DNA of 32,000 bases from Acaryochloris marina MBIC11017 (GTDB taxonomy: Bacteria > Cyanobacteriota > Cyanobacteriia > Thermosynechococcales > Thermosynechococcaceae). Of the stretch, positions 9,240-19,267 are shown piece by piece. The stretch is taken from assembly GCF_000018105.1 (NCBI RefSeq), contig NC_009925.1, forward strand, positions 1,560,001 through 1,592,000, given 5' to 3'. The notes beneath the pieces are model-generated. The model searched no databases and was not told where the DNA came from. It saw only the letters and a program-made list of their open reading frames with translations. Position numbers and translations under genes: made by a program. Positions within the stretch are counted from its first letter, which is position 1. The number at the start of each line of letters is the position of its first letter.

Positions 9240-9273
9240 GCTTTGTCCATATGATTAATAGCTAGGTAAATGG

Positions 9274-11131: not shown

Positions 11132-11188
11132 CGCCGAAAAAATGGGTCTTTCATATTGGCTTCACCCAACGAAGACAAAAGCCATCAC

Positions 11189-11432
11189 TTAAGGCTCATA
11201 GACAAAAGAAGGGTTGGTAGGTTTCGGTGTGATCAGTCCATCTTCTTCATAGACCACCCGATCGGCGATATCCATAATCCGGGGGTCATGGGTGACCATG
11301 AGGACCGTGCAGCCTTCTTCCTTGGCTAATTTTCGCAGCAGTTCCATTATGGTGTGACCCCGCTGAGAGTCCAGGGCAGCCGTGGGTTCGTCTGCCAGAA
11401 TCAACTTGGGGCTTCCGGCTAACGCTCTTGCG
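11189..11432 (-). pseudogene. 3' fragment (last ~80 codons) of a DevA-type ABC transporter ATPase gene
   Basis: It reads ARALAGSPKLILADEPTAALDSQRGHTIMELLRKLAKEEGCTVLMVTHDPRIMDIADRVVY.EDGLITPKP, nearly identical to the C-terminus of 17252-18085. Homology stops abruptly at 11432, and Walker A, the Q-loop and the LSGGQ signature are absent. Confidence 0.88.
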
Positions 11433-11494
11433 CCTTTAATGCCAAACTCTCCAAGATAAAATGGAAATGGTAATCCCAAAGTGAGGTTAGACTC

Positions 11495-11767
11495 ATGGCC
11501 GTTCGCCAACGACGCCACAGTAAAGAAGAGTTAGCCAGACGTGGGCAAGAACTCTACGAGGCTGGCATTCGGCAGCAAGTCGAAGCAGAAAATGAGGGCA
11601 AAATCGTGGCGATCGATATTGAAACTGGAGAGTTTGAAGTGGATGAAACGCTCATGGGGGCAACCGATCGGCTTTTTGAACGTCAACCCGATGCTCAGCC
11701 TTGGACCCTTCGGATTGGACATAGTGCGGTCTATCATTTTGGAGCGAGGAGTCTGAAAAAAGATTAA
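11495..11767 (+). CDS. Small protein (90 aa), upstream partner of the retropepsin-like protease; antitoxin-like or adaptor-like, function unknown
   Basis: The N-terminus is basic (RQRRHSKEELARRGQELYEAGIRQQVEAE), followed by GKIVAIDIETGEFEVDE...PWTLRIGHSAVYHFG. Its TAA stop shares one nucleotide with the next ATG (TAATG at 11765-11769). Confidence 0.65.
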   Translation: MAVRQRRHSKEELARRGQELYEAGIRQQVEAENEGKIVAIDIETGEFEVDETLMGATDRLFERQPDAQPWTLRIGHSAVYHFGARSLKKD

Positions 11768-12135
11768 TGATTCATGGAGTTGTCAATTTTCGCTATGAAT
11801 TAACGCTTTCCCTCGCAGTTGGCAACTTGAATGGGCGACGAGAGTTCGTCAACACTGTCATTGATACCGGATTTGATGGATTCCTCTCTTTACCCTCTGA
11901 AATTATCATTCGTCTGGGATTACCTTGGAGAACCTCCAGCATAGCGACATTGGGTGATGGCAGCAAAACTCTGTTTGACTTTTACACTGGAACCGTCATC
12001 TGGGATGGTCAGTATCGCTCAATCGATATTGCTGAATCAGAGACGGAACCCCTGTTAGGATTGGCAATCCTTCGCGGATATCGATTGCAGGTCGATAATG
12101 TTGAGGGAGGTATCGTCACAATTGAAATGCTGTGA
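11767..12135 (+). CDS. Retropepsin-like clan AA aspartic protease, DTGF (AF_0612-type) family, single half-domain
   Basis: VIDTGFDGFLSLP contains the catalytic D-T-G plus the F that names the DTGF clade. The C-terminal LLGLAILRGY is typical of the dimerising half-protease. At 122 aa the size fits a homodimeric retropepsin. Confidence 0.8.
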   Translation: MIHGVVNFRYELTLSLAVGNLNGRREFVNTVIDTGFDGFLSLPSEIIIRLGLPWRTSSIATLGDGSKTLFDFYTGTVIWDGQYRSIDIAESETEPLLGLAILRGYRLQVDNVEGGIVTIEML

Positions 12136-12280
12136 TTGTGTGCAAATGCGATAAGAGGTTTAACCAGAGCTTACCGCTGGTGGCTTCAACACTCTGGTAT
12201 TAGCTTGAAGACGCTTGCCACGGCTGAAGTCCCAACCGTTATTTGTATATTGGCTCACCCAACGAAGACCAGATCCATCA

Positions 12281-12640
12281 CTAAGGTTCATGGACAAAAG
12301 AAGGATTGGCAGGTTTCGGTGTAATTAGTCCATCTTCTACATAGACCACCCGATCGGCGATATCGTCATGAGTCACCATTAGAACCGTGCAGCCTTCTTC
12401 CTTTGCTAATTTAGGCAGCGGTTCCATAATCGTAAGGTCCCGCTGAGAGTCCAGAGCGGCCGTGGGTTCATCTGCCAGAATCAGCTTGGGATTTCTGGCT
12501 AACGCTCTTGCGATCTCAACTCGCTGTTGCTGCCCACCCGATAGATTGCGGTGGGAACTCCAACATTTATTGGCGAGCCCAACTTGTTTCAGCAGTTTTA
12601 GGGAGTCTTGTCTCGCTACACGACTTTGGCTGCTCTTCAA
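12281..12640 (-). pseudogene. 3' fragment (about 115 codons) of a DevA-type ABC transporter ATPase gene, with an internal 12-nt deletion
   Basis: It reads LKLLKQVGLANK....LSGGQQQRVEIARALARNPKLILADEPTAALDSQRDLTIMEPLPKLAKEEGCTVLMVTHD----DIADRVVYVEDGLITPKPANPSFVHEP. Walker A is missing, and PRIM is deleted relative to the intact copy. Confidence 0.88.
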
Positions 12641-12820: not shown

Positions 12821-12847
12821 ACACATGATTTTACGGAGTCCAAGATT

Positions 12848-12991
12848 ATGAATTCATCCAACAACTTTTTTGGTTTCAATCCCTTTGCAGAAGCTTGGAG
12901 TGGTCGCCTAGCTATGGTCGGCATTTACATTGCCTTGATCATTGAACTCGTCACCGGCAAGGGTGTCCTACACTTCTGGGGATTGATGTAA
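12848..12991 (+). CDS. hli: High-light-inducible protein (HLIP / one-helix CAB-like protein), 47 aa; below the ORF-track size cut-off
   Basis: MNSSNNFFGFNPFAEAWSGRLAMVGIYIALIIELVTGKGVLHFWGLM carries the E-x-x-(N/S)GR-x-AM chlorophyll-binding helix motif of HLIPs. ACGGAGTC precedes the ATG, as in the second copy. Confidence 0.9.
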   Translation: MNSSNNFFGFNPFAEAWSGRLAMVGIYIALIIELVTGKGVLHFWGLM

Positions 12992-13248: not shown

Positions 13249-13287
13249 AGTTCATATAAGTCATTTTCTATTACGGAGTCAAACACC

Positions 13288-13446
13288 ATGAGCATCAAAA
13301 ATCAGACTTGGGGTTTCAACAGCTTTGCAGAGACTTTCAGTGGCCGCTTAGCCATGTGGGGCTTTTTCGTTGCCTTGGTCACCGAGGCCTTAACCGGAAA
13401 AGGAATCCTTGGACAACTGACTGCATTTTTCTTCTTTGTTAACTAG
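13288..13446 (+). CDS. hli: High-light-inducible protein (HLIP), 52 aa; below the ORF-track size cut-off
   Basis: MSIKNQTWGFNSFAETFSGRLAMWGFFVALVTEALTGKGILGQLTAFFFFVN has the same E..SGRLAM helix motif. ACGGAGTC lies upstream. Confidence 0.85.
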   Translation: MSIKNQTWGFNSFAETFSGRLAMWGFFVALVTEALTGKGILGQLTAFFFFVN

Positions 13447-13549: not shown

Positions 13550-14168
13550 CCCCATGATGAAATCAAGCAACAGCGGACGGAACAACTCGACCAAGAGCCT
13601 ACAAAATGTCTGTTTCTCAGCTTCAGACAGACCTGAAGCTAGGTCAAACTGCCACCCGAAAAATGGTTGAGTCCAATTTACGATTGGTCGTCTCCGTCGC
13701 CAAGAAAGATAACAAAGCTCGAATTTCTCGTTCTGATTCAAGAAGGCACGATTGGCCTGCGACGAAGCGTAGAGAAATTCGACCCTACCAAAGGCTATCG
13801 ATTTTCTACCTATGCCTATTAGTGGATTCGACAAACCGTAACTCACGCAATTGCCGATTAAGAGCGAACCATTCGTTTGCCAATCCATATTAATGAAAAG
13901 TTAAGCAAGTTAAACGCCAGCTCTCCCTCAAGCTCCATCGTGACCCGACTATTGCGGAGTTAGCAGCGGCAATGGACCTTTCCCCGGAGAAAGTTGAAGC
14001 CTTCTGGAGTTATGATCGCCATTCGATTTCTTTGGATATACAGATTGGCGATCAGCCATGGGAGAGCGACTTAATGTGAGCCGAGAATGGGTGCGTCGGG
14101 TTGAGCGAGAAGCATTCCAACTGCTTCTGTCCCAGAAGGGGATCCTGCAAGAGTATATGGCGTCCTAA
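13550..14168 (+). pseudogene. Decayed sigma-70 family (group 2/3-like) sigma factor gene
   Basis: Three frames must be joined. The pieces are [16 protein letters not shown] (region 2.1), [63 protein letters not shown] (regions 2.2-2.4 with TAG and TAA in frame), HRDPTIAELAAAMDLSPEKVEAFWSYDRHSISLDIQIGDQ (region 3) and GERLNVSREWVRRVEREAFQLL (region 4.2). Region 1 and most of region 4.1 are missing. The start coordinate is approximate. Confidence 0.8.
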
Positions 14169-14945: not shown

Positions 14946-16853
14946 ATGCCTGTTAATGACAAACCACGACGTCCTAATCCCTTTAGAACGATTTTACTGT
15001 TACTGCCCTTGGGCCTATTAGTTTTAAATCTAGTTTTGACCTTCGGTAACGGCCCACGAGTTTCCAAAGTGCCCTATAGCTTCTTCCTTGAGCAAGTCCA
15101 AGATGGAGAGGTAGCTCGGGTCTCCGTTGGCCAAGATATCATCCGCTATCAACTCAAAGGTATGGAGGGAAATGCAGGTCAGGTGCAAGAAACGACCCCT
15201 ATTTTTGACTTAGAGTTACCTAAGTTACTTGAAGCCAACGATGTCGAATTCGCCGCCACTCCTCCTGCTGGAAACCGCTGGTTCACCACTCTTTTGAGCT
15301 GGGTCATTCCCCCAGTGATCTTCGTGGCCATCTTCCAATTCTTTAGTCGCGGTGGCATCGGTGGTGGGGGTCCCCAAGGTGCCCTCTCCGTCACCAAAAA
15401 CAAAGCCAAAGTCTATGTCGAAGGCGATGACAACAAAGTCACCTTTGATGATGTTGCAGGTGTGGAAGAATCCAAAACCGAACTCGAAGAAATCGTAGAA
15501 TTCCTCAAGTCTCCCCAACGCTTTACCGAGATTGGTGCCAAGATTCCCAAAGGTGTTCTCTTAGTTGGACCTCCTGGAACCGGTAAAACCTTAATGGCCA
15601 AAGCCGTCGCGGGTGAAGCTGGTGTGCCCTTCTTCAGTATCTCTGGTTCAGAATTTGTCGAACTGTTTGTTGGTACCGGTGCAGCTCGGGTCCGTGACCT
15701 GTTTGAACAAGCTAAAAAGAAAGCCCCCTGCATCATCTTTATTGACGAACTTGATGCCATTGGTAAATCGAGAGCTGGTGGAAATGGCTTCGTCGGCGGT
15801 AACGACGAACGAGAGCAAACCCTCAACCAGCTCTTAACAGAAATGGATGGCTTTGGGGCTGGAGATGCCACCGTCATCGTCCTCGCTGCCACCAACCGTC
15901 CTGAAACTTTGGACCCTGCTCTATTACGTCCTGGTCGATTTGACCGCCAAGTCCTGGTAGACCGTCCTGACCTTACCGGTCGTCTGGCTATCTTGGAAAT
16001 CTATGCCAAGAAAGTCAAATTGGGTGAGAATGTTGACCTGAAAGCGATGGCAACTAGAACTCCTGGTTTTGCAGGTGCTGACTTAGCAAACCTCGTCAAT
16101 GAAGCCGCACTTCTAGCTGCTCGTCGAGGCAGTAAGGTAGTTGAGACTCAAGACTTTGCAGAAGCCATTGAGCGAGTGGTGGCTGGTCTAGAGAAGAAGA
16201 GCCGAGTGTTGAATGAGAAAGAGAAGAAGATTGTCGCTTATCACGAAGTCGGTCATGCTCTCGTCGGTGCCAAGATGTCTGGGACAGACCAAGTGGAGAA
16301 GATTTCCATTGTTCCCAGAGGTATGGCAGCTTTAGGTTACACCCTGCAAGTGCCCACAGAAGATCGGTTCTTGTTGAATGAGTCAGAACTCAAGGGTCAG
16401 ATTGCTACTCTCCTGGGTGGACGAGCTGCAGAAGAAGTTATCTTTGGCAGCATTACGACTGGAGCTTCTAATGACTTACAGCGAGCCACGGACTTAGCGG
16501 AGCAGATGGTGACGTCCTATGGCATGAGTGAGGTGTTAGGACCTCTAGCTTATGACAAGGGTCAGCAGAATAACTTCCTGGGTGGAGGGATGAATGCTCG
16601 CCGGGCTGTGAGTGATGAGACAGCCAAGGAAATTGATAAGGAAGTCAAGGGTATTGTCGAAACGGCTCACCAGGAAGCTCTGAGTATTCTTAAGGAGAAT
16701 AAGGAACTGCTGGAGACGATTTCGGAGCAGTTGCTGGAGAAGGAAGTCATCGAGGGCAATGGTCTTAGAGAAATGCTGGCTAAGGTTCATCCAGAGTTAG
16801 AGGGGCAGACTGAACAGCATGTGCAAGAGACTGAAAAGCCTCTAGCTGTCTAA
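14946..16853 (+). CDS. ftsH: ATP-dependent zinc metalloprotease FtsH
   Basis: It has two N-terminal TM segments, Walker [18 protein letters not shown], Walker [10 protein letters not shown] and the [23 protein letters not shown]. The zinc site is HEVGHAL. Confidence 0.97.
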
Positions 16854-16907: not shown

Positions 16908-17251
16908 GTACACCTGTCCTCACTTCCATAATATTTCGACTTAGCAAAAACACCTGAACAGACGTCGGATATTATGGTCGCTATCCGCAATGAATTGATA
17001 GGTATTCGCAGTCAACCACTCATGAATGACGACGAATCAGCACTTAACTACTATGGTGACGCCTACAATAGGGGCGATTCTCGTTTGTTCGACTGGCACC
17101 TATACGCCTCCCAAAATCGTAGATAACGATGCAATGAATCAAAGTCTTGGAACCGAACAGCTTTGAAGTGGAGCATCAATTTCTACAACCCAGTTATCGC
17201 AAACGTTATCCTTTTCTCAATAGGATCACCAAACAAGGACTAAATCTAAAC

Positions 17252-18085
17252 TTAAGACTCGTGCACAAAAGAGGGATTGGCTGGCTTAGGTGTGATTAGT
17301 CCATCTTCTACATAGACGACCCGGTCGGCGATATCCATAATTCGGGGGTCATGGGTAACCATCAGAACCGTGCAGCCTTCTTCCTTGGCTAATTTACGCA
17401 GCAGTTCCATGATCGTATGGCCTCGCTGAGAGTCCAGGGCAGCTGTGGGTTCGTCCGCCAGGATTAACTTGGGGTTTCCGGCTAACGCTCTTGCGATCGC
17501 AACCCGTTGCTTTTGCCCCCCAGACAAATCCCGCGGCAGACTTCGGGTCTTATCCGCCAGTCCTACTTGCCGCAGCAGCTTGATCGATTGCTTCTTTGCC
17601 GCTCGACCCCGAATCCCCTTTAAATTCAGGGTCGCTTCAATATTCTCCGCTGCCGTTAGGGCAGGAAAGAGGTTAAAGCCCTGAAAAATAAAGCCAATAT
17701 TCTGCAAGCGAAACTTGGACAGTTTGTGGCGAGGAAGTCCCGTGATGCTTTGGCCGAGTAAGGAAACCTGTCCACTGGTGGGGGTCAAGATTCCCCCTAA
17801 GATGGATAGAAGCGTCGTTTTCCCAGACCCTGATGGCCCCATCAGTAATTCGACATCCCCAGTTTTAATTTCTAGATCAATGCCTTTCAAAACCTTGAAC
17901 TGCTGATCGCCCACTTGGAATGCCATTTCAATACCTTTGGCCTGAATGGCAGGCGTAGCCAGATCACCAGCAGTATCAGGAGTGGAGGTCATCAATGTCA
18001 TCGGTTGAGGTCGTTGGCGAAAAGCAAGTTGCATCAGGTGTATCTCTCTTGACAGGTTTCCCAGTTGAGTCAGTTTTGTTTCCAA
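17252..18085 (-). CDS. ABC transporter ATP-binding protein, DevA / MacB-type subfamily. The true start may be the ATG at 18001.
   Basis: It carries Walker A GPSGSGKTTLLS, the signature LSGGQKQRVAIARAL, Walker B LILADEPTAALD and the H-loop MVTHD. It starts 6 nt after the permease stop. Confidence 0.9.
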   Translation of the reverse strand: METKLTQLGNLSREIHLMQLAFRQRPQPMTLMTSTPDTAGDLATPAIQAKGIEMAFQVGDQQFKVLKGIDLEIKTGDVELLMGPSGSGKTTLLSILGGILTPTSGQVSLLGQSITGLPRHKLSKFRLQNIGFIFQGFNLFPALTAAENIEATLNLKGIRGRAAKKQSIKLLRQVGLADKTRSLPRDLSGGQKQRVAIARALAGNPKLILADEPTAALDSQRGHTIMELLRKLAKEEGCTVLMVTHDPRIMDIADRVVYVEDGLITPKPANPSFVHES

Positions 18086-18091
18086 ATGAGT

Positions 18092-19267
18092 TTACGACTT
18101 GAAGACGAGGGCTGGATCGAGTCGAGTTACTTTTTGAATGGCAAAGATCGCTGCTCCACTACACATGGCGACGGTGACGACGAAGACTCCGGCTGCCGTT
18201 GCTGGACTAATCAAGATCTGAATCGCTTGAGCCTGAATCGTCCAAGCACCTAAGCCTAAGCAAAGTCCCATACCCGGCAAATATCCCAACACCGCCATCC
18301 ACAGCGCCTGCTCTAAGATGACGCGATAGATATACCAATCAGACGATCCCATGGCCTTCATGGTGCCAAACTCTCGAAGATGGTCCGTGACGGAAGAATA
18401 GAGAATTTGGCCCACCACAACGGTTCCGACCACAATGCCCACCACTGCACCTAAACCCAAGATATAGCCAACCCCAGTACTCTGCTGCCAATAGGTTTGG
18501 GTTAATTCTGTGAGTTCAGCTTGCGTAAAGGCTTTGGTACCGGGTAATGCCTCTTCTAGGCGGTCTTTCAGAGCGGATAGGTTTTCACCGGATTTCGCTT
18601 TGACCAGAATATAGGTAATCCGGTTTTGATCCGTTAAATCAGGCGGGTCGGGTGGAGTCTCATTCGGTGTAGCGATGGGAGAATTCAGATAGGCCGTAGC
18701 GTTGGGTAAAGACGTAAAAATATAAGGACTCGCCACAATCGAGCGAGTGCCGGCCGTAATCCCTTTAATCTCTCCTTCATAGGAGCCAATTTCAGCCCGA
18801 TCACCTACTGCCGAGACATCCAGGAGTTTGAGATCGGCTTGATCCACAAAGATTTTATAGGGCTGCTGGATATCCTTCAGGGTTCCTTCCAGAAGCGTAC
18901 GTGGTCGAAACAAGGTATCTTCAGGGTCAAAGCCAATAATCCGAATGGGGGCAATCTGATTGGACTTATCCCGCCACACCGTGGATTGGGCAATTAGGGG
19001 TTCTGCCCGATCGACTCCTTCTACCTCTTTCGCTTCAGCCAGCTGTTTGTATTCCAAAGGTAGGGTTAAGGCCAAATGGCGTAGTTCTTCGGAAGTCACC
19101 CAGATATCTGCATCCGCATTTTCGATTAGGACGGTGGACGAACGGGTAAATCCGTTGAGGATGCCAATTTGAATGGTGACTAACCCAACGGAGAACATGA
19201 TGCCGGCTTGGGCAACAATAAAGCGAGGCAAGTCCTGGAATAAATTTTTGCGGGCGATAGAAACCAT
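18092..19267 (-). CDS. ABC exporter permease, DevC / FtsX-like family
   Basis: The N-terminus IARKNLFQDLPRFIVAQAGIMFSVGLVTIQIGILNGF is followed by a large periplasmic loop. The C-terminal FtsX-type block has three TM helices (LREFGTMKAMGSSDWYIYRVILEQALWMAVLGYLPG...). The DevC-DevA gene order is conserved. Confidence 0.85.
   Translation of the reverse strand: MVSIARKNLFQDLPRFIVAQAGIMFSVGLVTIQIGILNGFTRSSTVLIENADADIWVTSEELRHLALTLPLEYKQLAEAKEVEGVDRAEPLIAQSTVWRDKSNQIAPIRIIGFDPEDTLFRPRTLLEGTLKDIQQPYKIFVDQADLKLLDVSAVGDRAEIGSYEGEIKGITAGTRSIVASPYIFTSLPNATAYLNSPIATPNETPPDPPDLTDQNRITYILVKAKSGENLSALKDRLEEALPGTKAFTQAELTELTQTYWQQSTGVGYILGLGAVVGIVVGTVVVGQILYSSVTDHLREFGTMKAMGSSDWYIYRVILEQALWMAVLGYLPGMGLCLGLGAWTIQAQAIQILISPATAAGVFVVTVAMCSGAAIFAIQKVTRLDPALVFKS

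Follow-up and report, generated by a model that had tools for sequence, protein, structure and literature searches.

The window analysed here, a stretch of 32,000 nucleotides from Acaryochloris marina MBIC11017 (NC_009925.1, positions 1,560,001 to 1,592,000 of the forward strand), contains two small overlapping open reading frames (ORFs), AM1_1590 (ORF1) and AM1_1591 (ORF2), and the locus raises the question of what a free-standing aspartic protease of the retropepsin type, encoded by ORF2, does in company with the small unannotated protein encoded by ORF1. Our tentative answer, given at a little under even confidence, is that the two genes may form a toxin-antidote module that is autonomous and moves horizontally, acting in addiction and/or abortive-infection defence. 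With somewhat more reserve, we propose that it may found a new and widespread toxin-antidote/abortive-infection class, in which a free-standing retropepsin would be the effector and a partner resembling the DUF5678 proteins would hold that effector inactive.

ORF1 (11495-11767, forward strand) starts with ATG and encodes 90 amino acid residues (aa), and ORF2 (11767-12135, forward strand), also with an ATG start, encodes 122 aa. The stop/start overlap lies at 11764-11769 of the forward strand, where the A at 11767 in TAATG (11765-11769) is common to the TAA stop and the ATG start; the tight bicistron with one shared base that an earlier note on this DNA had reported is as it was described. Exact-sequence look-up identified AM1_1590 as ABW26614.1/WP_012162138.1, annotated as a hypothetical protein, and AM1_1591 as ABW26615.1, annotated as a clan AA aspartic protease and assigned to COG5550 in eggNOG. 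There is no second copy of either ORF within the window, and the G+C content of the module (46.6%) is that of its surroundings (46.5% for the window).

The DNA shared with other loci spans approximately 11445-12152 (about 700 bp, including its own -10 element), with homology starting at about 11435-11450 and reaching about 12170 at some loci. The conserved 5' leader of the cassette (11445-11494, forward strand) shows a -10-like TAAAAT (11457-11462, forward strand) upstream of ORF1 and a Shine-Dalgarno GAGG (11483-11486, forward strand). A TANAAT motif was found 29-40 nt 5' of the ORF1 ATG in 62 of 79 unique upstream sequences, and in 64 of the 79 over the whole scanned stretch from -55 to -21, against 2/79 in a control stretch; this conserved -10-like element sits 5' of ORF1 only. 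No conserved -35 element was seen in the cassette leader, which explains why a generic sigma-70 scan was blank there, and no conserved palindromic operator is evident in the sequence 5' of ORF1. Downstream of ORF2, a short and partly conserved 3' tail (12136-12170, forward strand) completes the cassette. At many loci (L008, L009, L010, L011, L014, L033, L069 and others) the motif TGATTGTATGCAGAGGCGATCGGTGAGGYACGGTCTAACAA is present 0-45 nt past the ORF2 stop, and the version of the window (about 12133-12170) is shorter and diverged relative to it. No terminator was found after ORF2, and the tail motif TGATTGTATGCAGAGGCGATCGGTGAGGYACGGTCTAACAA forms no terminator hairpin.

ORF2 is by family a single-lobe clan AA (retropepsin-type) aspartic protease, with a fold predicted from sequence, as the earlier note had recognised from its motifs VIDTGFDGF and LLGLAILRGY. 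The window protein matches NCBIfam TIGR03698 (clan_AA_DTGF) with an E-value of 2.3e-14 and 53.6 bits, just below the curated cut-off of 57.35 bits, and each of the 27 diverse relatives tested, whose identity to the window protein ranges from 32 to 77%, also matched this model at E<=0.01 (best 3.9e-23). Among the profile hidden Markov model (HMM) searches which that note had proposed, TIGR03698 was thus significant for the window protein, if below its cut-off, whereas the other two models, PF13650 and PF13975, were not matched by it, since no Pfam match was obtained at E<=1; weak matches to these two families came from 12 of the 27 diverse relatives (best 3.9e-4 and 7e-4). The catalytic V-I-D33-T-G-F (D33-T34-G35-F36 codons at 11863-11874, forward strand) and the P95-L-L-G98 motif (codons at 12049-12060, forward strand) are contained in one lobe of 122 aa, so that ORF2 has the features by which clan AA is recognised: Asp-Thr/Ser-Gly after two hydrophobic residues, a downstream hydrophobic-hydrophobic-Gly, and a lobe of about 100-130 aa. 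Alignment A7, of diverse sequences, shows no variation at D33-T34-G35, L96, G98, G4 and V6 and hardly any at P95 and G115; the D, T and G are also invariant in alignment A1, and DTG[F/Y] is retained in 112 of 117 unique pairs. Conservation extends to the terminal strands, MIxGxV at the N-terminus and GGxVxIexL at the C-terminus.

Structural comparison was less informative. PDB sequence and profile searches with ORF2 gave nothing significant, the best and weak match of the family profile being the Rickettsia retropepsin ApRick (E=0.16), over a region spanning the DTG and LLGMSLL motifs, and when the ORF2 family was aligned with HIV-1 protease in hhalign, the probability was an uninformative 7%. 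The AlphaFold2 model of ORF2 has a mean predicted local distance difference test score (pLDDT) of 39.7 and is unusable because the alignment supplied (31 sequences, 75-90% identity) was too shallow, while the order of secondary structure elements is compatible with a retropepsin fold. The failed model, the hhalign value, the TIGR03698 score under the trusted cut-off and the lack of a Pfam match for the window protein would all suit a catalytically dead or non-proteolytic retropepsin fold, for example a peptide-binding module, in a pair whose function is not proteolysis. We consider this very improbable: the D-T-G triad is invariant across the 27 divergent relatives and kept in nearly all unique pairs, conservation also covers the PLxG motif and the terminal strands, and the conservation of the catalytic motif in a gene with a dN/dS (ratio of nonsynonymous to synonymous substitution rates) of 0.12 argues for catalysis.

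ORF1 has no match in Pfam (E<=1), NCBIfam, PADLOC or PHROGs. A full HMMER scan found its family in 2,148 clusters (50% identity) at E<=1e-3 and in 517 at E<=1e-10. Both ORF1 and ORF2 have thousands of homologues and, as they are also under purifying selection, they are not chance ORFs. The AlphaFold2 model of ORF1 (pLDDT 77.8) consists of a helix at residues 10-33, a beta-beta-alpha-beta-beta core and a disordered tail, in agreement with the basic helical N-terminus and small beta-rich domain that had been read from the sequence. Sequence, profile and Foldseek searches of ORF1 against PDB gave nothing significant, all Foldseek matches having E>2. In BFVD, Foldseek ranked a Pandoravirus DUF5678 protein first for the model (E=0.019, probability 1.0), with template modelling (TM) scores of 0.57-0.61 and a root mean square deviation of 2.6 Å over 73 columns. 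Furthermore, a two-domain relative of ORF1, P0247, passes the Pfam DUF5678 model (PF18929) with 23.5 bits against a threshold of 23.2, over the region of the beta-hairpin and helix; the same model was matched neither by the window ORF1 (E<=1) nor by 39 of the 40 relatives tested. ORF1 is thus probably a distant relative of DUF5678, judging from a weak similarity of fold and from the one relative of 40 that passes in Pfam, and not a member of the Pfam family, because the fold similarity is present but the HMM threshold is not reached. A beta-grasp (ubiquitin-like) reading of the beta-beta-alpha-beta-beta core was considered and dropped, as no such match was found in PDB.

In some homologues the ORF1 domain occurs as two or three tandem repeats. 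At locus L169 (3001-4945), a 259-aa protein with three ORF1 domains overlaps by 4 nt a single DTGF protease of 130 aa, and a second, canonical pair (99 and 134 aa) comes after them.

The association between both genes was studied from either side. An ORF1-seeded scan of one genome per GTDB species gave 529 relatives, and the best 80 of the 529 were all cyanobacterial; a second ORF1-seeded scan, of metagenomes, with a query from a distant subgroup (about 45-55% identical to the window ORF1), gave 80 further loci, whose named relatives come from metagenome-assembled genomes (MAGs) of Binatia, Deltaproteobacteria and Gemmataceae. Overall, ORF1 homologues were found in Cyanobacteria and in binatial, deltaproteobacterial and planctomycete MAGs, and the pair recurs in hundreds of bacterial genomes. 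The earlier note had made its proposal depend on ORF1 homologues being syntenic with DTGF proteases elsewhere, and the census bore this out: an ORF2 homologue comes directly after 89 of the 99 ORF1 copies from cyanobacterial genomes (ORF2 full length in 71, short or disrupted in 18) and after 63 of the 77 copies from distant metagenomic loci (full length in 55, short or disrupted in eight). Starting from ORF2, look-ups of 45 places showed a gene of 90-107 aa immediately 5' in 42 of 42 assessable intact copies, which are not independent because they were drawn from only five distinct ORF2 proteins. Distant pairs were also found by tblastn on Nostocales plasmids, including pCC7120alpha (ORF2 34-41% and ORF1 34-47% identical to the window proteins); five of the five intact ORF2 copies examined on these plasmids carry the upstream partner, and the annotated pairs have a 4-nt overlap.

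Across 116 intact pairs, 110 show a stop/start overlap, ATGA in 100 and TAATG in 10. The pairwise identities of ORF1 and ORF2 are correlated (r=0.85), and median dN/dS values of 0.09 for ORF1 and 0.12 for ORF2 show purifying selection on both. No ORF1-ORF2 fusion was found, and longer ORF1 homologues contain no DTG domain. Nor was ORF1 ever found with a different type of toxin, the ORFs downstream of solo ORF1 copies being ORF2 remnants or unrelated genes. The pairing is therefore obligate, ancient and co-evolving.

The two genes differ in how they decay. Counts were made on modules that do not touch a contig end, and copies not selected by the search were classed as secondary. Cyanobacterial primary copies comprise 50 with both genes intact, 15 with ORF1 intact and ORF2 fragmentary or absent, and none with intact ORF2 lacking an intact ORF1; the corresponding numbers are 25, 11 and zero for metagenomic primary copies, and nine, four and zero for secondary copies. 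The solo-ORF1 state, with ORF2 broken or missing, accounts for 15/65 cyanobacterial and 11/36 metagenomic primary copies, about a quarter of the sampled loci, and in total 30 copies have ORF1 intact and ORF2 broken or missing against zero of the reverse, an asymmetry that is only suggestive because primary loci were ascertained through ORF1. The ORF2-seeded copies (42/42 paired) agree with it in direction. In addition, an ORF1 fragment stands alone in four secondary copies (and in a fifth, at a contig end), and an ORF2 fragment stands alone in one. Among the lesions in ORF2 are deletions of the DTG region, truncations, replacements by other genes and a few frameshifts. At three metagenomic loci (L098, L111 and L114), ORF1 is followed by an ORF with an ORF2-like N-terminus (MITGTVAN...) that runs into HsdS-like sequence, and here ORF2 appears to have been replaced through recombination by a sequence resembling type I restriction specificity (HsdS) proteins.

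The module is a discrete, context-independent cassette. The 125 flanking proteins match 204 Pfam families, none of them more than three times, and a conserved third gene in the module was rejected on this ground. Tandem paralogous pairs occur at several loci, several genomes have two loci, and copies are carried on conjugative or mobilisable plasmids; a DNA-level plasmid search gave only ABC-transporter noise. The 90%-identity clusters of ORF1 and ORF2 span Acaryochloris, Chamaesiphon, Phormidesmis and other cyanobacteria, while Acaryochloris alone occurs among the named members of the equivalent clusters for the FtsH and epimerase encoded nearby. Recent horizontal transfer was considered as the cause of a 93% protein identity and is weakened by a dS (synonymous divergence) of 0.3-1.2 between the closest copies, so that strong constraint accounts for the high identity of the proteins no less than recent transfer does. 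At loci L202-L210, which represent one contig population in public runs, the module lies directly 3' of an ABC_tran ATPase gene and 5' of an ABC-3 permease gene; this may be a second, independent association with an ABC transporter, perhaps by coincidence.

Circumstantial support for reading the pair as a toxin-antitoxin (TA) or protease-inhibitor system comes from the order and coupling of the genes, their patchy occurrence in multiple copies and their asymmetric decay. As in type II TA systems, two small co-directional genes are adjacent and overlap at stop and start, under their own promoter and with the apparently benign one first, the place usual for the antitoxin; again as in type II systems, they are found in many patchy copies, on plasmids and in tandem arrays, and the second gene is lost more readily than the first, this last likeness being partly confounded by the ORF1-based ascertainment. 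Most type II antitoxins carry a DNA-binding domain. None was recognisable in ORF1 (ribbon-helix-helix, helix-turn-helix, AbrB or Phd-type) in Pfam, NCBIfam, PDB or fold searches, so the autoregulating DNA-binding antitoxin expected of a type II system is not seen here; ORF1 may bind DNA all the same. The roles are unlikely to be reversed, with ORF1 as the toxin and the protease as its antidote, given that ORF1 persists where ORF2 is lost: ORF1 is apparently not the dangerous partner, since it is tolerated alone and ORF2 apparently is not.

A toxin-antidote module built in this way would be read as one transcript from the -10-type promoter, with ORF1 translated before ORF2. Translation of ORF2 would be coupled through the overlapping stop and start, and ORF2 would never be made without ORF1. 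The putative effector, ORF2, would have to homodimerise to be active, probably through the conserved terminal strands MIxGxV and GGxVxIexL, and ORF1 would bind ORF2 and silence the protease, whether by preventing the dimer from forming or by occupying the cleft. Loss or titration of ORF1, on loss of the module, stress or phage infection, would be the trigger, and the freed ORF2 dimers would then cleave host or phage proteins and stop growth.

Several observations weigh against this scheme. In addition to the lack of a recognisable DNA-binding domain, ORF1 is better conserved than ORF2 in 91% of pairwise comparisons, when the toxin is usually the more conserved partner of type II TA pairs, and the exclusive pairing contrasts with the partner swapping of TA antitoxin domains. 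The match to type II TA systems that the earlier note saw in gene order and coupling stands, and the pair departs from a typical type II system in the missing DNA-binding domain, the slower evolution of ORF1 and the lack of observed partner swapping. The synonymous divergence between the closest copies, the way in which decayed loci were ascertained and the unusable ORF2 model count on the same side, as do two further results: PADLOC-DB v2 contains no family matched by ORF1 or ORF2 at E<=1, and the majority of neighbours are ordinary housekeeping genes, the share of defence genes among them having been counted without a baseline.

The misfits with a textbook type II TA system are equally compatible with a non-toxic two-subunit unit of niche stress or regulatory role, in which ORF1 would be the core, adaptor or substrate and ORF2 its dedicated protease. 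In such a unit, ORF2 would process ORF1 or be recruited by it to substrates, in the manner of a split Ddi1-like or cofactor-requiring protease. The slower evolution of ORF1, the absence of a DNA-binding domain, the exclusive pairing, the arrays of two or three tandem ORF1 domains followed by a single protease, the mostly housekeeping neighbours and the missing PADLOC match all fit it, and the decay asymmetry is equally expected if the function resides in ORF1 and ORF2 is an accessory that can be spared, as ORF1 would persist alone and ORF2, useless without ORF1, never would. However, a multicopy, patchy, context-free, tandem and plasmid-borne pattern typifies selfish or defence modules and not housekeeping ones, close Acaryochloris relatives lack the module at the same site, the frequent loss of ORF2 suggests that it is costly or dispensable, and the ORF1 model has no significant ubiquitin-like similarity in PDB. 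We therefore regard the non-toxic unit as possible but rather unlikely, and retain the toxin-antidote module as the preferred, tentative interpretation.

Some copies lie in or beside defence or TA genes. On the plasmid pNSMS101 of Nostoc sp. MS1 (L167, 2226-2863), the pair is located between the BREX-1 gene pglZ and a truncated pglX, beside an IS630 transposase; one plasmid copy is near a DUF1156 gene and a Uma2 endonuclease, and other copies have HsdS, PIN/DUF104, UPF0175/DUF3368, Mrr, DpdF, mad3/8, Cas6 or AbiA as neighbours. At loci L190, L191 and L196, a gene for a Barstar-domain protein and one or two genes of 122-123 aa are found directly 3' of one pair, which may be a small cluster of toxin/immunity-type genes. 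A strict anti-phage abortive infection system, in which ORF1 would serve as sensor or decoy and its removal or modification by a phage factor would release the protease, would agree with the BREX-1, DUF1156 and Uma2, HsdS, Mrr, DpdF, mad, Cas6 and AbiA neighbours, with a protease as effector and with a small, mobile module. The bulk of the neighbours is unrelated to defence, and the lack of a baseline for those that are and of any PADLOC match applies here as well. A phage origin was also discarded, as neither phage records nor IMG/VR viral contigs gave a match, and the absence of the module from the phage and viral contigs searched leaves no sign of an arms race. A strictly anti-phage role is accordingly improbable, although the confidence that we attach to the different readings is not exclusive, this one overlapping with the toxin-antidote reading.

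Among known proteins, ORF2 resembles the TIGR03698/COG5550 family (prototype AF_0612 of Archaeoglobus fulgidus) in its length of about 120 aa, its DTGF motif and its single lobe. About retropepsins of this type "little is known" (PMC2642776). The family was defined by sequence only, and a conserved upstream partner is outside its definition. The weak best solved relative of ORF2, APRc/ApRick (PDB 5C9B and 5C9D; DTGA group TIGR02281/COG3577), is a bacterial single-lobe retropepsin which is active as a dimer, is anchored in the membrane by an N-terminal transmembrane part and autoprocesses; ORF2, in contrast, is a bare soluble domain of 122 aa and, to our knowledge, APRc has no small coupled upstream partner. 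In eukaryotic proteins of the Ddi1/Rngo type, a small alpha/beta (ubiquitin-like) domain and a dimeric retropepsin domain are combined in one protein, whereas ORF1 and ORF2 are separate polypeptides, and the likeness is a conceptual analogy for the adaptor-plus-protease reading and not a claim of homology. DUF5678, whose fold the ORF1 model resembles although the window ORF1 does not match its Pfam model, is itself a family whose function is not known.

A retropepsin fold is not known to us from any TA toxin, and literature searches found none. Searches for the pair, its locus tags, DUF5678, TIGR03698, or a retropepsin with an antitoxin or anti-phage role found nothing relevant and no experimental work, in line with the statement of the earlier note that, to its knowledge, no function had been demonstrated experimentally for free-standing bacterial retropepsins of this kind or for their small upstream partners. 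The only nearby report concerns a retropepsin-domain protein associated with type III CRISPR loci of Sulfolobales (PMC3973734). What is new is thus a TA-like module with an effector fold that we have not seen reported and an uncharacterised partner, the ORF2 family being known by name only. Free-standing retropepsins of bacteria and archaea, possible relatives of the retroviral proteases, have been catalogued for more than 15 years without a function, and a constant, co-evolving and translationally coupled partner gives a functional handle on one protease subfamily, in a pair that can be cloned as a 700-bp cassette. If the toxin-antidote or defence interpretation is true, an aspartic protease would join a set of effectors in which nucleases, kinases, NADases and pore formers predominate, and both the single-lobe retropepsins of prokaryotes (COG5550/TIGR03698) and the DUF5678 fold would acquire a first physiological role; hundreds of cyanobacterial annotations of the form "hypothetical protein / clan AA aspartic protease", including those of bloom-forming Microcystis, would also be explained. 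If the pair is not toxic, it is still a new obligate protease-partner pair and the first context for DUF5678-like proteins.

In the window, the module is flanked by two diverged direct copies of the 3' end of one gene. Direct repeat A (11153-11432, reverse strand) is a 3'-end fragment of a MacB/LolD-type ATP-binding cassette (ABC) ATPase gene, truncated where the cassette region starts, and direct repeat B (12247-12512, reverse strand) runs on, up to 12800, into a decayed ABC ATPase pseudogene whose Walker A region is degenerate. Both repeats have their source sequence in the 3' end of the resident ABC ATPase gene (17252-18085, reverse strand), which lies outside the module and adjoins an FtsX/MacB permease gene (18092-19267). 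This 3' end is triplicated in the window (11153-11432, 12247-12512 and 17220-17524, with 79-86% identity), only the gene at 17252-18085 being intact; repeat A is 86% identical to the intact gene over 17226-17495. The triplication suggests repeated recombination or duplication involving the ABC ATPase 3'-end segment. The 814-bp stretch 11433-12246, which the earlier note had taken for a discrete insert, is therefore the interval between recombination-derived repeats and not a transposon with a target duplication; the module is indeed a context-independent cassette, and the DNA that it shares with other loci is narrower (about 11445-12152) than this interval. Campbell-type integration of a circle carrying a homologous segment, or serial duplication, would be possible origins of the repeats.

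In Acaryochloris CP071717 "Moss Beach" and CP064923, the epimerase/kinase genes are followed about 1.3 kb on by the ABC ATPase/MacB-permease operon, and the module is absent there. In MBIC11017 the first of these blocks ends at 9245 and the second starts at 16964, and the 7.7 kb between them is strain-specific DNA that includes the module. A degenerate module with 94% DNA identity to the window was found in Acaryochloris sp. CCMEE 5410 (L200, approximately 2500-2850), where ORF1 is frameshifted and ORF2, interrupted by a stop codon, has lost its DTG region; several copies of the ABC ATPase segment surround it.

Besides the module and the two ABC-ATPase fragments, the strain-specific DNA between 9245 and 16964 contains hypothetical genes (one of them DUF7716), an FtsH gene, two small hli-type genes and fragments of a sigma factor. 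The FtsH gene (14946-16853) falls in the same 90%-identity cluster as the second FtsH of the genome (ABW26342.1, "FtsH4") and is therefore a recent paralogue. At 13606-13893, sigma-70 region 2 motifs are split across two frames, which looks like a frameshifted pseudogene of a group 2 sigma factor. The two hli-type genes (12831-12991 and 13271-13446) encode proteins of 47 and 52 aa that resemble high-light-inducible, chlorophyll a/b-binding-like proteins, and both sit in a direct repeat of 440 bp with 71-81% identity.

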